A DNA stretch of 9,768 nucleotides from a virus. Taxonomy: Duplodnaviria; Heunggongvirae; Uroviricota; Caudoviricetes. Each line of letters begins with the position of its first letter. Position 1 is the stretch's first letter. The stretch lies in the IMG/VR virus record IMGVR_UViG_2728369554_000006. One strand, given 5' to 3'. Both the position numbers and the translations under genes were made by a program. This document shows positions 1 to 9,768 of the stretch, piece by piece. The notes beneath the pieces were generated by a model that saw only the letters and a program-made list of their open reading frames with translations, did not search any database and was not told where the DNA came from.

Positions 1-3000
1 ATCACGTCTGCAAACATCGACCGTCTGCGCTTTACCTTCGGTGTGCAGGCACTGGTGGAAACCACCTCAAAGGGGGACAGGAATCCGTCGGAAGTCCGTC
101 TGCTGGTTCAGATACAGCGTAATGGTGGCTGGGTGACGGAAAAAGACATCACCATTAAGGGCAAAACCACCTCGCAGTATCTGGCCTCGGTGGTGGTGGG
201 TAACCTGCCGCCGCGCCCGTTTAATATCCGGATGCGCAGAATGACGCCGGACAGCACTACAGACCAGCTGCAGAACAAAACGCTCTGGTCGTCATACACC
301 GAAATCATCGATGTGAAACAGGGCTACCCGAACACGGCACTGGTCGGTGTACAGGTGGACTCGGAGCAGTTCGGCAGCCAGCAGGTGAGTCGTAATTATC
401 ATCTTCGCGGGCGCATTCTGCAGGTGCCGTCGAACTATAACCCGCAGACGCGGCAATACAGCGGTATCTGGGACGGAACGTTAAAACCGGCATACAGCAA
501 CAACATGGCCTGGTGTCTGTGGGATATGCTGACCCATCCGCGCTACGGCATGGGGAAACGTCTTGGTGCGGCGGATGTGGATAAATGGGCGCTGTATGTC
601 ATCGGCCAGTACTGCGACCAGTCAGTGCCGGACGGCTTTGGCGGCACGGAGCCGCGCATCACCTGTAATGCGTACCTGACCACACAGCGTAAGGCGTGGG
701 ATGTGCTCAGCGATTTCTGCTCGGCGATGCGCTGTATGCCGGTATGGAACGGGCAGACGCTGACGTTCGTGCAGGACCGACCGTCGGATAAGGCGTGGAC
801 CTATAACCGCAGTAATGTGGTGATGCCGGATGATGGCGCGCCGTTCCGCTACAGCTTCAGCGCCCTGAAGGANNNNNNNNNNCAGTATCCGGATGCGCAG
901 GATGACGCCGGACAGCACCACAGACCAGCTGCAGAACAAAACGCTCTGGTCGTCATACACCGAAATCATCGATGTGAAACAGTGCTACCCGAACACGGCA
1001 CTGGTTGGCGTACAGGTGGATTCGGAGCAGTTCGGCAGCCAGCAGGTGAGCCGTAATTATCATCTTCGCGGGCGCATTCTGCAGGTGCCGTCGAACTATA
1101 ACCCGCAGACGCGGCAATACAGCGGTATCTGGGACGGAACGTTAAAACCGGCATACAGCAACAACATGGCCTGGTGTCTGTGGGATATGCTGACCCACCC
1201 GCGCTACGGCATGGGGAAACGTCTTGGTGCGGCAGATGTGGATAAATGGGCGCTGTATGTCATCGGCCAGTACTGCGACCAGTCAGTGCCGGACGGTTTT
1301 GGCGGCACGGAGCCGCGCATCACCTGTAATGCCTACCTGACCACGCAGCGTAAGGCGTGGGATGTGCTCAGTGATTTCTGCTCGGCGATGCGCTGTATGC
1401 CGGTATGGAACGGGCAGACGCTGACGTTCGTGCAGGACCGGCCGTCGGATAAGGTGTGGACCTATAACCGCAGTAATGTGGTGATGCCGGATGATGGCGC
1501 GCCGTTCCGCTACAGTTTCAGCGCCCTGAAGGACCGCCATAATGCCGTTGAGGTGAACTGGATTGACCCGGATAACGGCTGGGAAACGGCAACAGAGCTT
1601 GTGGAGGACACGCAGGCCATTGCCCGTTACGGTCGTAATGTCACGAAGATGGATGCCTTTGGCTGTACCAGTCGGGGGCAGGCGCACCGCGCCGGGCTGT
1701 GGCTGATTAAAACAGAACTGCTGGAAACGCAGACCGTGGACTTCAGCGTGGGTGCCGAAGGGCTTCGCCATGTACCGGGCGATGTCATTGAAATCTGCGA
1801 TGATGACTATGCCGGTATCAGCACCGGTGGTCGTGTGCTGGCGGTGAACAGCCAGACCCGGACGNNNNNNNNNNTACGAAGATGGATGCCTTTGGCTGTA
1901 CCAGCCGGGGGCAGGCACACCGCGCCGGGCTGTGGCTGATTAAAACAGAACTGCTGGAAACGCAGACCGTGGATTTCAGCGTCGGCGCAGAAGGGCTTCG
2001 CCATGTACCGGGCGATGTTATTGAAATCTGCGATGATGACTATGCCGGTATCAGCACCGGTGGTCGTGTGCTGGCGGTGAACAGCCAGACCCGGACGCTG
2101 ACGCTCGACCGTGAAATCACGCTGCCATCCTCCGGTACCACGCTGATAAGCCTGGTTGACGGAAGTGGCAATCCGGTCAGCGTGGAGGTTCAGTCCGTCA
2201 CCGACGGCGTGAAGGTAAAAGTGAGCCGTGTTCCTGACGGTGTTGCTGAATACAGCGTATGGGGGCTGAAGCTGCCGACGCTGCGCCAGCGACTGTTCCG
2301 CTGCGTGAGTATCCGTGAGAACGACGACGGCACGTATGCCATCACCGCCGTGCAGCATGTGCCGGAAAAAGAGGCCATCGTGGATAACGGGGCGCACTTT
2401 GACGGCGAACAGAGTGGCACGGTGAACGGTGTCACGCCGCCAGCGGTGCAGCACCTGACTGCCGAAGTCACTGCAGACAGCGGGGAGTATCAGGTGCTGG
2501 CTCGATGGGACACACCGAAGGTGGTGAAGGGCGTGAGCTTCCTGCTCCGTCTGACCGTAACAGCGGACGACGGCAGTGAGCGGCTGGTCAGCACGGCCCG
2601 GACGACGGAAACCACATACCGCTTCACGCAACTGGCGCTGGGGAACTACAGGCTGACAGTCCGGGCGGTAAATGCGTGGGGGCAGCAGGGCGATCCGGCG
2701 TCGGTATCGTTCCGGATTGCCGCACCGGCANNNNNNNNNNCCGCAGTGTGAACACCGTTGGCAAATCGGCATTTGTGGAGGCTGTTGGCCAGCCGAGTGA
2801 TGATGCATCCGGCTATCTGAATTTTTTCAAAGGAGAGATAGGGAAAACCCATCTGGCTCAGGAGTTGTGGACGCAGATTGATAACGGTCAGCTTGCGCCT
2901 GACCTGGCTGAAATCAGGACGTCCATTACGGGTGTCAGCAATGAAATCACGCAGACCGTCAATAAGAAACTGGAAGACCAGAGTGCAGCGATCCAGCAGA

Positions 3001-3854
3001 TACAGAAGGTTCAGGTTGATACAAATAATAACCTGAACAGCATGTGGGCTGTGAAGCTGCAGCAGATGCAGGACGGACGCCTTTATATCGCGGGTATTGG
3101 TGCCGGTATTGAAAACACCCCTGACGGCATGCAGAGTCAGGTGCTGCTGGCGGCAGACAGGATTGCGATGATTAATCCTGCGAATGGCAACACAAAGCCG
3201 ATGTTTGTTGGGCAGGGCGATCAGATATACATGAATGAAGTGTTCCTGAAATATCTGACGGCTCCCACCATTACCAGCGGCGGTAATCCTCCGGCCTTTT
3301 CCCTGACACCGGACGGGCGGCTGACGGCGAAAAATGCCGATATCAGCGGTAACGTGAACGCGAACTCCGGGACGCTCAACAACGTCACGATTAACGAGAA
3401 CTGTCGGGTTCTGGGAAAACTGTCCGCCAACCAGATTGAAGGCGATCTCGTTAAAACAGTGGGCAAAGCTTTCCCCCGGGACTCCCGTGCACCGGAGCGG
3501 TGGCCATCAGGAACCATTACCGTCAGGGTTTATGACGATCAGCCGTTTGACCGGCAAATTGTTATCCCAGCGGTGGCATTCAGTGGCGCTAAACATGAGC
3601 AAGATCATACTGATATCTACTCCTCATGCCGTCTGATAGTACGAAAAAACGGTGCTGAAATTTATAACCGAACGGCTCTGGATAATACGCTGATATATAC
3701 GGGTGTTATTGATATGCCTGCAGGCAGTGGTGTAATGACACTGGAATTTTCTGTATCGGCATGGCTGGTAAATGGCTGGTATCCCACAGCAAGTATCAGC
3801 GATTTGCTGGTTGTGGTGATGAAGAAAGCCACTGCAGGCATCACGATTAGCTGA
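1..3854 (+). CDS. J: Host-specificity / tail-tip protein J (lambda J-like), 5'-partial. Coding frame is broken by 10-N scaffold gaps at 873-882, 1865-1874 and 2731-2740. Coding segments are about 1-872, 884-1864, 1876-2730 and 2742-3854, with stop TGA at 3852-3854.
   Basis: Frame 1 from base 1 translates [44 protein letters not shown]..., which matches the lambda J protein as I remember it. Later segments continue the J sequence (…[33 protein letters not shown]…, …[16 protein letters not shown]…, …[21 protein letters not shown]…). The last ~150 aa diverge from lambda J. High-GC long ORF with antisense ORFs that look spurious. Confidence 0.9.
873..882. other. Assembly gap (10 N). Sequence after the gap re-starts about 660 bp back in J, so 883-1533 is a near-identical re-copy of 222-872.
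   Basis: Run of exactly 10 n; direct comparison of flanking sequence shows overlap with scattered single-base differences. Confidence 0.9.
1865..1874. other. Assembly gap (10 N). 1876-2097 re-copies 1643-1864 with a few mismatches.
   Basis: Run of exactly 10 n; flanking sequence is duplicated with single-base differences (for example gtcggggg/gccggggg, gtgggtgcc/gtcggcgca). Confidence 0.9.
2731..2740. other. Assembly gap (10 N) that hides roughly 75 codons of J, judged against remembered lambda J.
   Basis: The protein jumps from …[10 protein letters not shown] to RSVNTVGKS…; in lambda J these are separated by about 75 residues. Confidence 0.7.
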
Positions 3855-3872
3855 ATTTTATAACCCAGATAC

Positions 3873-3900
3873 GGGCGCCAGAAATGGCGCCTTTTTTATT
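3873..3900 (+). terminator. Rho-independent terminator downstream of J
   Basis: GGCGCC (3874-3879), loop agaaat, GGCGCC (3886-3891), followed immediately by TTTTTTATTT, 20 bp after the J stop codon. Confidence 0.65.
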
Positions 3901-3912
3901 TGTGGAGTGAAT

Positions 3913-5955
3913 ATGGCAGTACAGATTTCAGGTGTGCTGAAAGATGGTGCGGGAAAACCAATACAGAACTGCACTATTCAACTGAAGGCAAAGCGTAACA
4001 GCACCNNNNNNNNNNNNNNNNNNNNNNNNNNNNNNNNNNNNNNNNNNNNNNNNNNNNNNNNNNNNNNNNNNNNNNNNNNNNNNNNNNNNNNNNNNNNNNN
4101 NNNNNNNNNNNNNNNNNNNNNNNNNNNNNNNNNNNNNNNNNNNNNNNNNNNNNNNNNNNNNNNNNNCGCCATGACGGAAGATGATGTCATGCCGGAGGCA
4201 CTGCGCCGTTTTGAGCTGATGGTGAATGAAGTGGCACGTCATGCCGGAGCATCATCACAGAGCGCAGCGGCAGCAAAGAAATCCGAAACTGCAGCGGCAT
4301 CATCGAAGAACGCGGCGAAAACCTCAGAAACGAATGCAGCTAACAGCGCACAGGCGGCAGCGGCCTCGCAGACTGCATCGGCAAACTCCGCGACAGCAGC
4401 CAAAAAATCAGAAACCAGCGCGAAAAATAGCGAGACAGCCACAAAGGCCAGCGAAAAAAACGCAAAATCCAGCCAGACGGCAGCGAAAACCAGTGAGACG
4501 AATGCCAAAGACAGTGAAGCCAACGCAAAGGTGAGCGAAACAGCGGCGGCGAACTCGGCGAAAGCATCGGCAGCAAGCCAGACGGCAGCAAAAGCAAGTG
4601 AAGATGCTGCCAGAGAATACGCAAACCAGACAGCAGAGCCGTACAGATATGTTTTACAGCCGCTGCCGGATGTGTGGATACCCTTTAATGATTCGCTGGA
4701 TATGATTACGGGCTATTCTCCGGGTTATAAAAAAGTGAAGATTGGTGATAATGTGGTTCAGGTTGCCAGTGATAAACAGGTTAATTTCAGTCGCGCATCA
4801 ACGGCAACATATATCAACAAATCTGGCGAACTGAAAACGGCGGAAATTAATGAGCCGCGATTTGAGTGTGATGGCCTGCTTATTGAGGGACAAAGAACGA
4901 ACTACATGCTCAATTCGGAAAGTCCAGCCAGCTGGGGGAAGTCATCAAACATGGATGTGCCCGAAACCGGGACGGATAGTTTTGGTTTTACTTATGGAAA
5001 GTTTGTCTGCAACGATTCTCTGGTTGGGCAAACTTCGGCTATTAATATGGCATCAATTGCTGCAACAAAGTCAGTTGATGTCTCAGGCGATAACAAGTAC
5101 GTGACAACCTCATGCCGTTTTAAAACAGAACGACAGGTAAGGTTACGTATACGGTTTGATAAGTATGATGGTAGTGCAACAACTTTTCTTGGCGATGCGT
5201 ACATTGATACGCAAACGCTTGAAATTAATATGACAGGTGGTGCTGCCGGCAGAATTACGGCACGAGTCAGGAAGGATAAGACCACGGGCTGGATTTTTGC
5301 AGAGGCAACGATTCAGGCAATTGATGGTGAGTTAAAAATAGGCTCTCAGATACAGTATTCTCCTGAGCAGGGTGGGGCAACAGTATCTGGTGACTATATT
5401 TATCTTGCCACCCCACAAGTAGAGAATGGGCCGTGTGTATCATCATTTATTATTTCAGGAGGCAGCGCAACGACAAGAGCCAGTGATTTGGTTAGTATCC
5501 CCACCAGAAATAATCTTTATAAGTTACCATTTACTTTTTTACTTGAGATTCATAAAAACTGGGATATTGCACCAAACGCCGCACCCCGCGTGTGGGATAT
5601 AGCAGCAGCCAATACCGGGCAATCAGCAATTGCAGCAATCAACAGAGGTAGTGGTAAGTTATATATGAGTCTGTCAAACCCTTCAGGCTCGTATGTTAAT
5701 AGCGCAGCGACAGATGTATTTGCAGAGAAAACCACATTTGGATGTATTGCAAAAGCTGATGGTCACTTTCATGTGGTGACAAATGGTAAAGCGGTTAATG
5801 AAGTTTATTGTGAATATAATGGCGTGACCGCTGATAAAAATATCCGATTTGGAGGGCAGACGAATACTGGAGAACGACATCTGTTTGGCCATATTCGCAA
5901 TTTCCGCATATGGCATAAAGAATTAAATGACAGGCAATTAAAAGAGGTCGTATGA
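3913..5955 (+). CDS. stf: Side tail fibre protein (lambda Stf-like N-terminus, Ser/Ala/Thr repeat shaft, C-terminal LamG/concanavalin-like receptor-binding domain). N-terminal region is partly masked by Ns.
   Basis: ATG at 3913 is preceded by GGAG (3903-3906). N-terminus MAVQISGVLKDGAGKPIQNCTIQLKAKRNST and …AMTEDDVMPEALRRFELMVNEVAR resemble the lambda/O157 Stf N-terminus. The C-terminus …LFGHIRNFRIWHKELNDRQLKEV fits the typical ending of a LamG-like jelly-roll domain. The 681-aa ORF is in frame across the N run. Confidence 0.85.
   Translation: MAVQISGVLKDGAGKPIQNCTIQLKAKRNSTXXXXXXXXXXXXXXXXXXXXXXXXXXXXXXXXXXXXXXXXXXXXXXXXXXXXXXAMTEDDVMPEALRRFELMVNEVARHAGASSQSAAAAKKSETAAASSKNAAKTSETNAANSAQAAAASQTASANSATAAKKSETSAKNSETATKASEKNAKSSQTAAKTSETNAKDSEANAKVSETAAANSAKASAASQTAAKASEDAAREYANQTAEPYRYVLQPLPDVWIPFNDSLDMITGYSPGYKKVKIGDNVVQVASDKQVNFSRASTATYINKSGELKTAEINEPRFECDGLLIEGQRTNYMLNSESPASWGKSSNMDVPETGTDSFGFTYGKFVCNDSLVGQTSAINMASIAATKSVDVSGDNKYVTTSCRFKTERQVRLRIRFDKYDGSATTFLGDAYIDTQTLEINMTGGAAGRITARVRKDKTTGWIFAEATIQAIDGELKIGSQIQYSPEQGGATVSGDYIYLATPQVENGPCVSSFIISGGSATTRASDLVSIPTRNNLYKLPFTFLLEIHKNWDIAPNAAPRVWDIAAANTGQSAIAAINRGSGKLYMSLSNPSGSYVNSAATDVFAEKTTFGCIAKADGHFHVVTNGKAVNEVYCEYNGVTADKNIRFGGQTNTGERHLFGHIRNFRIWHKELNDRQLKEVV
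4006..4166. other. 161-nt N run (masked or unknown sequence) inside the stf 5' region; reading frame is preserved across it
   Basis: Contiguous n characters; the ORF continues in the same frame on both sides, suggesting 1:1 masking rather than a sized gap. Confidence 0.8.
4255..4615 (+). repeat. Tandem degenerate repeats encoding a Ser/Ala/Thr/Lys-rich fibre shaft (motifs such as AAKTSETNAK and AKKSETSAKNSETA)
   Basis: Reiterated gcagcgaaaaccagtgagacgaatgc-type units visible in the DNA; translated protein shows periodic K-x-SET-x-A motifs. Confidence 0.75.
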
Positions 5956-6230
5956 AAGATTTAACTTTGAAGTTTCATGACAAACTGCAGTTTAAGGCCT
6001 TCCTGTCATCTCTTGGCTGGGCGGAAGATGAAGACCTCCAGAATAAACTGTTAGTTGATGAAATTGGTTTCACCTACACAGAAACAGGGGTAACAGAAGA
6101 GGGAGAACCTGTCTGTATCCGGAATGATGGTTATTTTGTCAACATTCGCATTCTTGATGACTTGTTTGATGTTTCTGTATTCTCTGATTATGTCGTGGAG
6201 CTGGAAACACCGCTTCGGGAATGGAGCTGA
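5952..6230 (+). CDS. Hypothetical small acidic protein (92 aa), translationally coupled to stf
   Basis: ATG overlaps the stf stop (ATGA at 5952-5955); AGAGG lies 5 nt upstream; D/E-rich translation; ORF directly abuts the next gene. No family recognised. Confidence 0.6.
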   Translation: MKDLTLKFHDKLQFKAFLSSLGWAEDEDLQNKLLVDEIGFTYTETGVTEEGEPVCIRNDGYFVNIRILDDLFDVSVFSDYVVELETPLREWS

Positions 6231-6237
6231 AAGGAGG
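6231..6237 (+). promoter_or_regulatory. Shine-Dalgarno sequence (AAGGAGG) for the 97-aa ORF
   Basis: Perfect AAGGAGG with a 5-nt spacer to the ATG at 6243. Confidence 0.7.
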
Positions 6238-6242
6238 AAATA

Positions 6243-6536
6243 ATGGATATAAGCCCCTTACTTCATGCACTTTGTGCTGTGGCTGCGCAGATACTGGTTG
6301 GTCTTTTTACCGGAAACTGGGCTTACGGAGCGATAGCCGGTTGTACGTTCTTCATTGCGCGTGAACATACCCAGGCAGAATATCGCTGGATTGAAATGTT
6401 CGGGCATGGCAAGCGAATGAATATGCCGTGGTGGGGCGGTTTTGATCCGCGTGCTTGGGATGTGGCAAGCCTGATGGATTTTGCTGTGCCGGTGGTGGCG
6501 TGTCTGCTGGTCTGGCTGTTGGTTAATCGTGGGTGA
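6243..6536 (+). CDS. Hypothetical small integral membrane protein (97 aa, two predicted hydrophobic helices, Trp-rich loop)
   Basis: Strong SD; hydrophobic stretches LLHALCAVAAQILVGLFTGNWAYGAIAGCTFFIA and VASLMDFAVPVVACLLVWLLV separated by a polar loop (RMNMPWWGGFDPRAW). No family recognised. Confidence 0.65.
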   Translation: MDISPLLHALCAVAAQILVGLFTGNWAYGAIAGCTFFIAREHTQAEYRWIEMFGHGKRMNMPWWGGFDPRAWDVASLMDFAVPVVACLLVWLLVNRG

Positions 6537-6546
6537 AAAAAGGTGA

Positions 6547-6675
6547 GCTGTATATGCAACGGAGGAAGAAACCCCGTTGCTGGAAGCCAGGAAAAAGTAT
6601 CGGGTGTTGCTGAACCGGGTTGATACATCAACTGCACCTGATATTGAGTGGCCTGCTGTCCCTGTTATGGAGTAA
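6547..6675 (+). pseudogene. tfaD: 5'-truncated remnant of a tail fibre assembly gene (tfa C-terminal ~40 codons, no start codon)
   Basis: Translation [42 protein letters not shown] matches the conserved Tfa C-terminus (…[16 protein letters not shown]…). An in-frame stop lies immediately upstream (6544-6546) and there is no start codon. The symbol is tentative, taken from the position relative to ybcY in the K-12 DLP12 prophage as I remember it. Confidence 0.7.
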
Positions 6676-6729
6676 TCATTGGGATTATGCCGCAGCACGT
6701 CTTAAGCAAGAACGTGCTGTGGTTGGATG

Positions 6730-7386
6730 CTATTTTTTCCCTGAAGCGGAAAACATTACTACAGTACCTTGAACCTTGGTTTTAACATTCTCGAAATGCT
6801 CTGAGAGTATATGTGTTAAGCCTTCTTCGGAATCTTTTGTGTTTGAAAAGATGCCTTTCTGATTGTAAATGCGCATCAGTTTTTGACCGAAGCTATTGTG
6901 CACAACTCCATCGCCAAGAATTGTGGCTCCGTATAGAGTTCCATCGTCAGTTAAGGCCTGCGCCGCATTGCGTATTACACAGCTTTTTGTAGATATATTT
7001 CCAGGCAGGCAGTGAAGAAGGTAAAACATGGAAATGGAATCAAATTGACCATGTAACGCCGCGGGATAAGGTTCAAAAACATCATGGCTAATTTTATGTT
7101 TAATTTTTGATTCCCCTGCCCTTGTAGATGCCGCGTTCAGGCTAGCTTCGTTCAAATCCATTAAAGATATCAGACTACTCTCAGGTACGTGAGTAAGGTA
7201 AAACCCAGTTCCAACACCAATATCCAGATGGTTGTTACCTAAATGTTCCAGAAAGTGTGGAAGAAGGTGTTCCTTTGTAGGACATCCCCATGCAAGCCGA
7301 TTTGATACACCCAAAACCCACCAGTCATAAAGCTTTAGGGTAAGTGGTGTGTAAATTTTAGCCCCATCATCTGTGTTTTTTTTCAT
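6730..7386 (-). CDS. ybcY: Class I SAM-dependent methyltransferase (ybcY-like), apparently intact. A further in-frame ATG sits at 7396-7398.
   Basis: Motif I LDIGVGTGF, an acidic residue ending the next strand (SLMDLN), and a motif II-like FDSISMFYLLHCLP. GGTGA lies upstream of the MKKNTDDG start. Position and orientation between two tfa remnants match remembered ybcY in DLP12. No DPPY/NPPY motif, so it is probably not a DNA N6/N4 methyltransferase. Confidence 0.7.
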   Translation of the reverse strand: MKKNTDDGAKIYTPLTLKLYDWWVLGVSNRLAWGCPTKEHLLPHFLEHLGNNHLDIGVGTGFYLTHVPESSLISLMDLNEASLNAASTRAGESKIKHKISHDVFEPYPAALHGQFDSISMFYLLHCLPGNISTKSCVIRNAAQALTDDGTLYGATILGDGVVHNSFGQKLMRIYNQKGIFSNTKDSEEGLTHILSEHFENVKTKVQGTVVMFSASGKK

Positions 7387-7454
7387 TAATTTCACCATGT
7401 TATAGTTTTATTTATGAATTAAATCAATTATGGCGATGAATTACAAGGGGTTAA

Positions 7455-7760
7455 ATGCTGCCGCAGCATAGCGATATTGAAATAGCCTGGTATGCTTCGA
7501 TACAGCAGGAGCCGAATGGCTGGAAGACCGTCACCACACAGTTCTACATCCAGGAATTCAGTGAGTATATTGCGCCACTGCAGGATGCTGTAGATCTGGA
7601 AATCGCAACGGAGGAAGAAAGATCGTTGCTGGAGGCATGGAATAAATATCGGGTATTGTTGAATCGTGTTGATACATCAGTAGCTCTGGGTATGAAGCTG
7701 TTTGTAACTCATATTACAGTAACGGCCATTACTATATCGAAGGTGCAAAATGTATATTGA
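7455..7760 (+). pseudogene. tfaX: Truncated or chimeric tail fibre assembly protein fragment (tfaX-like, 101 codons)
   Basis: …[39 protein letters not shown] matches the Tfa C-terminal region, but the ORF then diverges ([14 protein letters not shown]…) and lacks the N-terminal half of a full Tfa of about 190 aa. Confidence 0.6.
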
Positions 7761-7889
7761 TTTGATATTTTATAAATTTGCTTCGAATCTGGCATGTCAA
7801 CTTTTGATTAAAGTAATATCAGTTTTCGGCGAAAAAAGGACCGTGTACATGAGACGATTTCATACAAGAATAACAAAAATATGAATATG

Positions 7890-7921
7890 CTCCCAATGCA
7901 ATATATGTTTTGCATTGGGAG
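7890..7921. terminator. Perfect 11-12 bp inverted repeat between the convergent tfaX-like ORF and the hydrolase gene; possible bidirectional terminator or regulatory hairpin
   Basis: ctcccaatgca (7890-7900), 10-nt AT loop, tgcattgggag (7911-7921). Flanks are AT-rich but the T-runs do not directly abut the stem on either strand. Confidence 0.35.
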
Positions 7922-7943
7922 CAAATAGCGGAATATTTTGAAG

Positions 7944-9428
7944 TTATTGTATTTCTGCTTCAGAATTTCCTGGGCAGTATATATTTTCTATTTTTTGTGG
8001 AGTGATCAGGTGATGTACAACTGCTTTATCTACACATAAATTAACTCCGGTGAGAGCTAATGTATGCCCATCACCATTTATTGTTAGTAACGGGCTGGAA
8101 AATTTCTCTGCCATCTTACGGGCATTAATCCAGGGCGTTGTTGGGTCGTATTTGTGTGCTACAAACAGTAAACCAGAGGGCAGAACAGTATTTTTCAGGC
8201 GAGTTTTGTTCAGGTCGCTATGTATTGGCCATAATTCACAAAAATCAGGTGAATCGGAACGTCCATTGTCAAAGTTAATAGCCGGGAAGGCATTCGCAAG
8301 AGCGTCTTTTCGGGATTTTCGCTCTTCTGGTGTTAATTGCTCATCCCCCTGATCTACACAAAGGATTACCCCCGAAGCATCGCTTGACTCTTCTGAGGCT
8401 ATCGGAGCACTGAGCGCAGTTTCAATTTCATTACTGACAATCCCCTGAGAGAACTGGCGTATGGCAGTTGCAAGGGTTGGCCATGATGAACGCCATAGCA
8501 GAAGGTCTGTTGTTAATGATATGAGTTCATCTGAAGATATATTTTCTCCCTTACTGTCTAATAAAGGTTTGTGATGTAATTTTGATAATAGCTCATGGAA
8601 CTGAGTTATTGCCTTATCTCTGTCTGAAGAAAGCGGGCAACTTTTTGTACGCGCACACCAGGATGCAAAGCGATCAAACGTTTCCTGATAACTCTGTGCC
8701 TGTTTGAGTTGCCATGTGAAGTTGTCCTCCAGGTCATCGATATCGACGACTCCATCAAGAACGATAGATCTTACGTTGTAGGGAAAACGTTCTGCATATA
8801 AGGCTGCAATTTGAGTTCCATACGAATACGCCACGGCTGTCAGTTGTTTATCCCCCAAGGCTTGCCTAATACGATCAATATCGTATACAGCCTCGTTAGA
8901 GCCGATATGGCGAATGACTTCGGCTCCGGTATTATGGATACAGGCATTAATTTTATTTAATACTTGTTGCTTTTCGGTTATGTTTTCCTGAGTCTCTGTA
9001 TCTGATTGCCGGCAGTTTATTGTCGGAGTGGACTGTCCGACGCCTCGAGGATCAAATCCAATAATATCCCATGACTCACGAAGATTTGTGACTGGCCAGT
9101 CAAAGTTAATATAAGGATTTATGCCTGGTAACCCGGGACCACCACTTATTATCAGGATACTTCCTTTATGCTTGCTTTTTGCCGGCAATTTTGTCAACGC
9201 TAGTTTGACTTGTGATTTTTTTTCATAAGAAGCATCTCCGCCTGTGTCTGTATATTTTAATGGAACAGACAAATAACCACATAGTAAGTCAGGAGACGGT
9301 TTTTCCTCACCAAACCAGTGGTTGAATTGACTGGCCATACAGGATTGCCACTGTATCTGCTGGGCAGATACGGTTACTGGTAGAAGTAACGTTAAAACAA
9401 CTTTGAAATGAGTAATTATTTTTCGCAT
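7944..9428 (-). CDS. Secreted alpha/beta-hydrolase, S33 (prolyl/tripeptidyl aminopeptidase-like) serine peptidase family, with N-terminal Sec signal peptide
   Basis: 494-aa ORF. N-terminus MRKIITHFKVVLTLLLPVTVSAQQ is signal-peptide-like. GFDPRGVGQS motif, nucleophile elbow AYSYGT (G-x-S-x-G-like) and C-terminal NGDGHTLAL (candidate catalytic His) are typical of the alpha/beta-hydrolase S33/TAP family. Markedly AT-rich relative to J. Confidence 0.8.
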   Translation of the reverse strand: MRKIITHFKVVLTLLLPVTVSAQQIQWQSCMASQFNHWFGEEKPSPDLLCGYLSVPLKYTDTGGDASYEKKSQVKLALTKLPAKSKHKGSILIISGGPGLPGINPYINFDWPVTNLRESWDIIGFDPRGVGQSTPTINCRQSDTETQENITEKQQVLNKINACIHNTGAEVIRHIGSNEAVYDIDRIRQALGDKQLTAVAYSYGTQIAALYAERFPYNVRSIVLDGVVDIDDLEDNFTWQLKQAQSYQETFDRFASWCARTKSCPLSSDRDKAITQFHELLSKLHHKPLLDSKGENISSDELISLTTDLLLWRSSWPTLATAIRQFSQGIVSNEIETALSAPIASEESSDASGVILCVDQGDEQLTPEERKSRKDALANAFPAINFDNGRSDSPDFCELWPIHSDLNKTRLKNTVLPSGLLFVAHKYDPTTPWINARKMAEKFSSPLLTINGDGHTLALTGVNLCVDKAVVHHLITPQKIENIYCPGNSEAEIQ

Positions 9429-9566
9429 TGTGTCTCTGAATATCGGAATAAAGATAAAATTTGAATATATTGAGGTCTTGTGTTGCGGTAAGAGATTACA
9501 CGTTATGACATAGGTTAAATGCTTACAAAATTAGTGGATATTGTCTACTTGTAACTGTAAACAAAT

Positions 9567-9595
9567 TCCCCGGGGTTATACAATACCACCGGGGA
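9567..9595 (-). terminator. Candidate intrinsic terminator of ompT
   Basis: On the minus strand: GC stem CCCCGG/CCGGGG (plus 9568-9573 and 9589-9594), a rather long ~15-nt loop, then AUUUGUUU, about 20 nt after the ompT stop. Confidence 0.4.
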
Positions 9596-9614
9596 GAAAA
9601 TCTGGTTAACTTCG

Positions 9615-9768
9615 TTAAAAGGTGTACTTAAGACCAGCAGTAGTGATGAAGTTATAGTTTTCTATGCCTGCACCATTTTTGCTGTAGTCTGAAGTGTTAT
9701 CATTGTGATCATAAAGTGAAGTATTACCTTTTTTATTCGTAACCCGATTCCATGCGCCTTCAACATAA
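9615..9768 (-). CDS. ompT: Outer membrane protease OmpT (omptin), C-terminal 50 codons plus stop; gene continues beyond the window end
   Basis: Reverse-strand translation YVEGAWNRVTNKKGNTSLYDHNDNTSDYSKNGAGIENYNFITTAGLKYTF* matches the remembered E. coli OmpT C-terminus, including the terminal aromatic beta-barrel signature. Confidence 0.85.
   Translation of the reverse strand, partial: YVEGAWNRVTNKKGNTSLYDHNDNTSDYSKNGAGIENYNFITTAGLKYTF

Follow-up and report, generated by a model that had tools for sequence, protein, structure and literature searches.

A predicted exported serine hydrolase of the Hip1/TAP branch encoded beside omptin genes in Escherichia coli prophages and plasmids

The hydrolase gene downstream of ompT

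The 9,768-nucleotide stretch of IMG/VR virus record IMGVR_UViG_2728369554_000006 (Caudoviricetes), which was analyzed as a whole and is referred to here as the window, breaks off at its right end within the outer-membrane protease gene ompT, and the open reading frame (ORF) directly downstream of ompT, which codes for a predicted exported serine hydrolase, is the subject of this study. The ORF listing places this gene at 7944-9428 on the minus strand, with an ATG start and a product of 494 residues, just as a first-pass annotation made from the sequence alone had described it, and the motifs GFDPRGVGQS, AYSYGT, and GDGH are all found in its translation. The minus-strand translation of the last 153 bases (9615-9767) reads ...ENYNFITTAGLKYTF followed by a stop codon, which is the OmpT C-terminus, and RefSeq annotates ompT at the right end of the window in genomes that are 100% identical over 7761-9768. 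Both genes lie on the same strand, with 186 nucleotides (nt; 9429-9614) between the ompT stop codon and the ATG of the hydrolase. The GC content of the hydrolase coding sequence is 42.2%, compared to 59% for the tail-gene part of the window.

Two Pfam models matched the protein above their gathering cut-offs, Abhydrolase_1 (PF00561; 115.9 bits, cut-off 25.8, residues 91-460) and the TAP-like Abhydrolase_4 (PF08386; 54.2 bits, cut-off 21, residues 386-479), confirming an alpha/beta-hydrolase with a TAP-like domain where the first-pass annotation had proposed an S33-type alpha/beta-hydrolase. Among solved structures, Hip1 chains were the best match, with phmmer E-values of 3.5e-51 to 1e-50 and up to 7e-50 over residues 21-475. 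Since the Pfam and Hip1 matches are accompanied by matches to 2389 database proteins, a chance ORF is ruled out. An AlphaFold2 model of the hydrolase, built from a 20-sequence alignment, reached a mean predicted local distance difference test score (pLDDT) of 84.8 and a predicted template modeling (TM) score of 0.86, with low confidence only at residues 1-18 (pLDDT <50), 67-69, and 489-494. In the model, a large lid of helices (residues 236-380) is inserted between strands of the alpha/beta core. Its best PDB matches in Foldseek were the Hip1 structures 7SFM, 8E5W, and 9MD8 (TM-score 0.75-0.80), followed by TnmK1 and TnmK2 and then, much more weakly, by prolyl aminopeptidases. An identity as prolyl aminopeptidase was rejected, as the NCBIfam model TIGR01249 scored 35.8 bits, compared to an equivalog cut-off of 259.75, and covered residues 167-263 only.

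Residue conservation was assessed in an alignment of 20 sequences, which combined the window protein, three divergent alleles from E. coli, and sixteen homologues with identities as low as 27%. None of these sequences deviates at S202, D428, or H455, and the catalytic triad, whose conservation the first-pass annotation had left to be checked, is therefore well supported. Likewise invariant are GGPG (residues 96-99), DPRGVG (126-131), and T431; the oxyanion-loop motif SGGPG is present in the hydrolase, and ten cysteines (30, 50, 139, 163, 258, 264, 357, 397, 465, and 485) are invariant or nearly so. The AYSYGT motif aligns to GYSYGT of Hip1, the triad to S228/D463/H490, and T431 to Thr466. Hip1 has been shown by experiment to be a serine protease and esterase with this triad, the primer for its S228A variant encodes LGY(A)YGT, and its 11 cysteines are predicted to form five disulfides; furthermore, Hip1 and the Streptomyces tripeptidyl-peptidases (TPPs) constitute one family, members of both groups cleaving proteins and peptides (PMC4022732). 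By homology, the ORF thus encodes a serine hydrolase of the Hip1/Streptomyces tripeptidyl-peptidase (TAP) branch with an alpha/beta-hydrolase fold. We take this branch to belong to MEROPS S33, a placement that would follow from the homology to Hip1 and the TPPs together with weak, sub-threshold matches to prolyl aminopeptidases.

With Hip1 (Rv2224c, CaeA; PDB 5UGQ, 7SFM, 8E5W), the hydrolase shares homology over the full length, the fold, the triad, the threonine corresponding to T466, and about 10 cysteines, and both proteins are extracytoplasmic, in the case of the hydrolase by prediction. However, the identity between them is only about 26-27%, the hydrolase belongs to a host with a Gram-negative envelope, and the GroEL2 substrate and immunomodulatory role of Hip1 are not transferable. 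The TAP-like C-terminal domain is common to the hydrolase and to TPP A, B, and C of Streptomyces lividans (Tap, SlpD, and SlpE), which are tripeptidyl aminopeptidases, a specificity that could be ascribed to the hydrolase by family likeness only. Actinobacterial plasmid and chromosomal homologues are 22-31% identical to it. The same lidded fold is found in TnmK1 and TnmK2 (PDB 8E18 and 8G5T; TM-score 0.73-0.76; sequence E-values 4e-18 and 2e-08), which act in the tiancimycin biosynthesis cluster; no such cluster is present here, and both enzymes are a caution that the fold is not always that of a protease.

The hydrolase begins with MRKIITHFKVVLTLLLPVTVSA, followed by QQIQW, a segment with an n-region charge of +3, a hydrophobic core of mean Kyte-Doolittle hydropathy 2.5, and V and A at positions -3 and -1. 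The junction of VSA with the following Q or R recurs in each of the five E. coli alleles despite differing residues upstream. No lipobox is present, in contrast to several actinobacterial relatives in the alignment, which have a cysteine at the end of the signal peptide and are thus of the lipoprotein type, whereas the hydrolase is of the signal-peptidase-I type. These rule-based features agree with the secreted protein proposed in the first pass and suggest Sec export with cleavage by signal peptidase I after A22. The suggestion is supported by the conserved cysteines and by the homology to mature Hip1, which begins at residue 21-24 of the hydrolase. As the signal peptide appears to be cleavable and lacks a lipobox, a soluble periplasmic or further released enzyme is predicted.

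A separate observation concerns the gene start: the PHROG profile phrog_20134 begins at residue 31 of the ORF (codons 1-31 correspond to 9336-9428), and many phage annotations apparently start at Met31 and, consequently, drop the signal peptide together with a conserved IxWxSC motif.

Linkage to omptin genes and strain distribution

Each of the divergent E. coli alleles that were located is directly preceded, on the same strand, by an omptin gene, which extends the arrangement of the window to five omptin lineages, in chromosomal prophages, a ColV-like plasmid, ompP plasmids, and two more island or plasmid lineages. The allele of 95.5% identity is encoded on an iro-carrying, ColV-like plasmid after an omptin gene whose product is 91% identical to OmpT; the 77% allele follows ompP on IncF-type plasmids, including an F' plasmid of K-12, and the 81% and 82% alleles follow two further omptin variants amid fimbrial, autotransporter, or plasmid genes. 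The ompP-hydrolase pair alone was found at a coverage of at least 80% in 156 PLSDB plasmids. Its hydrolase on plasmid F is YuaR (Swiss-Prot "Putative hydrolase YuaR"; P34211, PMC10557376), a paralogue of 499 residues that is about 77% identical, has the same signal-peptide junction, and is encoded directly downstream of ompP, but differs from the window gene in being plasmid-borne, in an omptin spacer of 92 nt instead of 186 nt, and in its terminator.

The two genes have diverged together, as omptin and hydrolase identities co-vary across the lineages (99.1/99.6, 91.2/95.5, 79.2/82.0, 71.9/81.2, and 70.0/76.8%, respectively). Moreover, their GC contents are equal in every lineage (42-46%; in the window, 42.2% for the hydrolase and 43.6% for ompT), and the spacer between them ranges from 92 to 188 nt. 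DNA homology between lineages is limited to the pair itself, about 2.6-2.8 kb, with different flanking genes in every context. For the hydrolase, ratios of nonsynonymous to synonymous substitution rates (dN/dS) of 0.12-0.18 at dS values of 0.6-1.06 between lineages indicate purifying selection. Comparison at the sequence level thus presents the hydrolase as the downstream half of a two-gene omptin-hydrolase module of 2.6-2.8 kb, which by the same comparison has been transferred in one piece between the lambdoid prophages, the plasmids of the IncF and ColV types, and the genomic islands found in E. coli. Beyond these lineages, tblastn detected no omptin gene or remnant near the plasmid homologues of Budvicia, Salmonella, and Serratia (53% identity). 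Likewise, 79 of the 80 loci among the matches listed from GTDB representative genomes (Serratia, Pseudomonas, Acinetobacter, and many Actinobacteria, the latter dominating the set, with thin proteobacterial sampling) lack an omptin within 4 kb, the exception being an E. coli-derived contig.

The first-pass annotation had given the gene order of the K-12 DLP12 right end and had placed the hydrolase in the slot occupied there by appY. The MG1655 record, with the order tfaD-ybcY'-tfaX-appY-ompT-envY, and the break points obtained by BLASTN confirm both statements: homology to K-12 ends at window position 7684 and resumes at 9565, and the 1880 bp in between stand in place of the 1529-bp appY cassette of K-12. 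No appY match was found anywhere in the window by BLASTN against MG1655, and in a search for repeats marking recombination around the cassette (7685-9564), only short chance-level matches were obtained. With a GC content of 28.9%, compared to 40.1% for the hydrolase cassette and 43.4% for K-12 ompT, the appY cassette is the compositional outlier.

A different state is found in the CFT073-type locus, where ompT lies 272 bp from ybcY (PMC6854850). By BLASTN, CFT073 aligns to the window at 6559-7481 and then at 9458-9768 with 92% identity. Missing from it is 7482-9457, and with this segment the hydrolase gene, 29 nt of its leader, and the tfa remnant; of the DNA preceding the hydrolase ATG, 157 bp are retained. 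This retention of hydrolase-side DNA bears the mark of a deletion in an ancestor that had the hydrolase; remnants of the hydrolase protein were not detected by tblastn in the K-12 or CFT073 loci. Because the pair occurs in all five omptin lineages examined, because appY is the outlier in GC content, and because CFT073 carries this scar, the omptin-hydrolase pair looks ancestral, and the loci of K-12 (appY having replaced the hydrolase) and of the CFT073 type (hydrolase deleted) look like derived states as judged from the sequences.

Upstream of ompT, in DNA just past the right end of the window, hydrolase-bearing prophages carry helix-turn-helix and acetyltransferase genes that are missing in K-12. 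Some of these prophages adjoin yecD-aspS or minCDE rather than the DLP12 site, and such strains can therefore carry two ompT loci.

With respect to its distribution, the gene is not the novel cargo that the first-pass annotation had envisaged, since it proved to be a common and annotated neighbor of ompT. Among 5426 complete E. coli genomes, the segment 7761-9768 (hydrolase and ompT 3' end) was found at a coverage of at least 80% in 1223, and about 3099 match at least its ompT-end part. The hydrolase gene alone occurs in 1291 genomes; an identity of 99% or more is reached by 1213 of its 1347 matching records, including O157:H7, O55:H7, and O111. The K-12 appY cassette is present in fewer genomes (827) than the hydrolase with the ompT end. 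Furthermore, the pair resides on prophages of isolates from urine and cerebrospinal fluid, and the temperate phages 2G7b, ev243, PhiR49_1, PhiR26_1, and others carry the methyltransferase-tfa'-hydrolase-ompT block at 98.7-99.1% identity.

The identical protein is RefSeq WP_001226375.1 ("alpha/beta hydrolase"), which is also the protein of O55:H7. In O157:H7 Sakai, the same gene is ECs_1662 (NP_309689.1, "hydrolase") of the lambda-like prophage Sp8, adjoining ompT (ECs_1663). O157:H7 copies are 99.6-99.7% identical and share the position near the right end of a lambdoid prophage, with the same distance of 186 bp from the upstream ompT; however, ISEc8 is located between tfa remnant and hydrolase in O157, and the prophage lies beside minCDE, whereas the closest relatives of the window lie beside yecD-aspS. 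Some phage records name the product "putative lactone hydrolase", and its PHROGs entry, phrog_20134, is listed with unknown function. The gene is, therefore, already known, being common and annotated, with entries from thousands of E. coli genomes, from phages, and from plasmid F. What is new is that it has stayed linked to omptin genes wherever these have moved, as seen in every E. coli omptin lineage examined, a point absent from the annotation, and no functional study of the hydrolase, of YuaR, or of the omptin-hydrolase linkage was found in the open-access literature searched. Desloges et al. 2019 (PMC6854850) reported a gene called ymcE at a distance of 186 bp from ompT, on its downstream side, in the uropathogenic E. 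coli isolate "cystitis 6"; as the spacing is identical, this is probably the same hydrolase under a wrong name. The ArlABC locus of adherent-invasive E. coli was considered as a further carrier and rejected, ArlB being a predicted epimerase. A 4319-bp contig of a metagenome-assembled genome labelled "Bacillus sp." (JBJEFM010000006.1) has hydrolase and ompT at 100% identity and is almost certainly an E. coli contamination of that bin.

Expression, proposed function, and alternatives

Two hairpins bear on the expression of the pair. The terminator-like hairpin of the module (Table 1) is located 21 nt downstream of the hydrolase stop codon as an inverted repeat with 94% complementarity, and it is conserved in the copy of the plasmid ompT lineage. 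The other, a GC-rich hairpin (CCCCGG...CCGGGG, about 9568-9594, minus strand), directly follows the ompT stop codon. It is found in four of the five omptin lineages and in weaker form in the fifth, with differing loops and outer pairs, and is followed by only a weak T-tract; it may act as a leaky terminator or as a stabilizer that sets the ratio of omptin to hydrolase expression. Inspection of the 186-nt spacer by eye gave only weak promoter candidates and a lone PhoP-box-like half-site. As no promoter was called in the spacer and as only about 45 nt lie between hairpin and hydrolase start codon in the ompP lineage, the hydrolase is probably transcribed, at least in part, by read-through from ompT. 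In a microarray study of O157 Sakai, ECs1662 and ompT were down-regulated (log2 changes of -2.53 and -2.72) within the same expression cluster, although they stand in separate parts of the growth-transition tables (PMC2241611).

Taken together, we consider it probable that the gene encodes a functional, Sec-exported serine hydrolase of the Hip1/TAP branch, most likely a peptidase, that constitutes one half of an omptin-hydrolase module. The protein would be exported via Sec, cleaved after A22, and oxidatively folded in the periplasm, where, as Hip1 does, it would most probably cleave peptide bonds and, incidentally, esters. By the same analogy, it may act within the cell envelope on peptides or on the N-termini of unfolded proteins. 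The omptin and hydrolase genes may be co-transcribed through the leaky hairpin, with the module ending in its own terminator. Speculatively, the hydrolase may further degrade fragments generated by the omptin, such as those of cationic antimicrobial peptides.

Several points weigh against this interpretation. The predicted signal peptide has been judged by rules only; the promoter scan gave no minus-strand sigma-70 match in the 186-nt spacer at the threshold of the tool, and the transcription architecture is inferred; no biochemical or localization data for the hydrolase or YuaR were found in the open-access literature searched. The Hip1-like fold also houses non-proteases (TnmK1 and TnmK2), and peptidase rather than esterase activity of the hydrolase is suggested by family analogy. 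Moreover, in Budvicia, Salmonella, Serratia, Pseudomonas, and Acinetobacter, no omptin gene lies within 4-5 kb of the homologues of 45-54% identity; the linkage is specific to the E. coli clade and could reflect the hitch-hiking of a 1.5-kb neighbor. OmpT is fully active in K-12 despite the missing hydrolase, and ompT was kept in at least two losses of the hydrolase (K-12 and CFT073); any partnership would, therefore, be dispensable for omptin function.

Among the alternatives, an enzyme of the envelope whose main activity would be that of an esterase or lipase, directed at lipids, lipoproteins, or acylated components of the envelope, appears rather unlikely. Its fold and triad are common to esterases, the label used in some phage records is that of a lactone hydrolase, and Rv2224c itself was reportedly first described as "carboxylesterase A". 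Hip1 hydrolyzes p-nitrophenylbutyrate (PMC4022732), but the characterized relatives, Hip1 and the Streptomyces TPPs, cleave proteins and peptides, and both the TAP-like C-terminal domain and the weak NCBIfam matches, which are to peptidases, point in the same direction. Improbable, too, is a separately acquired, unusual prophage cargo inserted beside ompT in the normal position of appY, as its low GC content had suggested in the first pass. The hydrolase does occupy the appY slot relative to K-12, and the right end of the lambdoid prophage, where it is encoded, is a cargo region of low GC content. However, its GC content equals that of ompT (42.2% compared to 43.6%) and it is the appY cassette, at 28.9%, that deviates; furthermore, the pair is conserved and has co-diverged in five omptin lineages, its arrangement is commoner than that with appY (1223 compared to 827 of the 5426 genomes), and the CFT073 deletion scar keeps hydrolase-side intergenic DNA. 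The acquisition claim of the first pass thus did not hold.

A part in prophage anti-phage defense or superinfection exclusion is very improbable. The protein is matched along its full length by the PADLOC model PDLC01094 ("C3a206, TAP-like protein") with an E-value of 6.8e-56, and the gene lies in the moron region of temperate phages, but this match (188 bits) represents the same family-level similarity as that to Hip1 and the model stems from an uncharacterized candidate set; in addition, the neighboring methyltransferase and small ORFs gave no PADLOC match, and an exported periplasmic enzyme combined with an outer-membrane protease would be an atypical defense architecture. We give hardly any credence to a functionless passenger kept by its closeness to ompT: although at least two losses of the gene left ompT in place and the gene has no known phenotype, its ORF is intact, its dN/dS is 0.12-0.18 over a dS of about 1, its triad and cysteines are invariant, and its transcript is detected and regulated in O157.

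Going one step beyond the exported hydrolase and its linkage, omptin and hydrolase may constitute a functional two-protease envelope module selected as a unit, a possibility that we regard as doubtful. The omptin would cut cationic host peptides and proteins at the surface, and the hydrolase would finish the degradation or act alongside in the periplasm or in vesicles. Linkage, co-divergence, purifying selection, and the shared expression cluster are compatible with such a module, yet do not prove it. If it were true, "OmpT phenotypes" of enterohemorrhagic E. coli and of strains with F or ColV plasmids could stem partly from an overlooked partner, and K-12 and CFT073, the two best-studied reference backgrounds, are those that lost it. 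In any case, differences in ompT context between strains include a second exported hydrolase, as predicted here, besides promoter variation, and researchers working on omptins gain a cheap and specific hypothesis. In O157:H7, O55:H7, and O111 genomes, the gene adjoining ompT encodes a homologue of Hip1, which is a validated virulence protease of Mycobacterium tuberculosis; by analogy with Hip1 only, the hydrolase may have a role in host interaction, as also raised in the first-pass annotation.

Further features of the window

The mapped features are compiled in Table 1.

Table 1. Features mapped in the right-hand part of the window, with position, strand, and supporting evidence.
Feature	Position	Strand	Details and evidence
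Hip1/TAP-family alpha/beta-hydrolase coding sequence (predicted exported)	7944..9428	minus	494 residues; ORF, Pfam, Hip1 homology, AlphaFold2, RefSeq
Predicted Sec (signal peptidase I) signal peptide	9363..9428	minus	codons 1-22, MRKIITHFKVVLTLLLPVTVSA; rule-based
Ser202 codon	8823..8825	minus	AYSYGT nucleophile, corresponding to Hip1 Ser228; alignment
Asp428 codon	8145..8147	minus	YDPTTPW, corresponding to Hip1 Asp463; alignment to Hip1 HDPATPY
His455 codon	8064..8066	minus	GDGHT, corresponding to Hip1 His490; alignment to His of Hip1 GTQHTV
Terminator-like hairpin	7888..7923	minus	14-bp stem, then T-rich tail; terminator scan and inverted repeat
ompT-hydrolase intergenic region	9429..9614	minus	186 nt
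ompT 3' end	9615..9768	minus	last 50 codons and stop (...ITTAGLKYTF, stop); gene continues beyond the window
Segment without K-12 counterpart	7685..9564		1880 bp; BLASTN against MG1655
Segment missing from the CFT073-type ompT locus	7482..9457		1976 bp; BLASTN against CFT073
tfaX-like tail-fiber-assembly remnant	7455..7760	plus	Pfam Caudo_TAP on residues 31-77 only
ybcY-like class I S-adenosylmethionine-dependent methyltransferase	6730..7398	minus	intact; Pfam methyltransferase domains and RefSeq

In contrast to this part of the window, positions 1-4166 are not colinear, containing 10-N spacers at 873-882, 1865-1874, and 2731-2740 as well as a 161-N run at 4006-4166. The pieces 1-872, 883-1864, and 1876-2730 map to overlapping parts of one gpJ gene in reference genomes, and the same J peptide therefore appears twice among the ORFs; this left part has the appearance of an artifact of scaffolding or of collapsed repeats, with several lambdoid prophages as its source.

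Between the tail-fiber gene and the methyltransferase, two small conserved phage ORFs of 92 and 97 residues (phrog_1361 and phrog_1443) are encoded at 5952-6536 on the plus strand, neither with a Pfam match. The methyltransferase, for which the profile search returned no close NCBIfam family, comprises 222 residues at a GC content of 40.8% and is the full-length form of the K-12 ybcY pseudogene; it is located within the same low-GC cargo region as the hydrolase. The tfaX-like remnant, annotated as a pseudogene in RefSeq and missing its N-terminus, forms the left flank of the hydrolase cassette.

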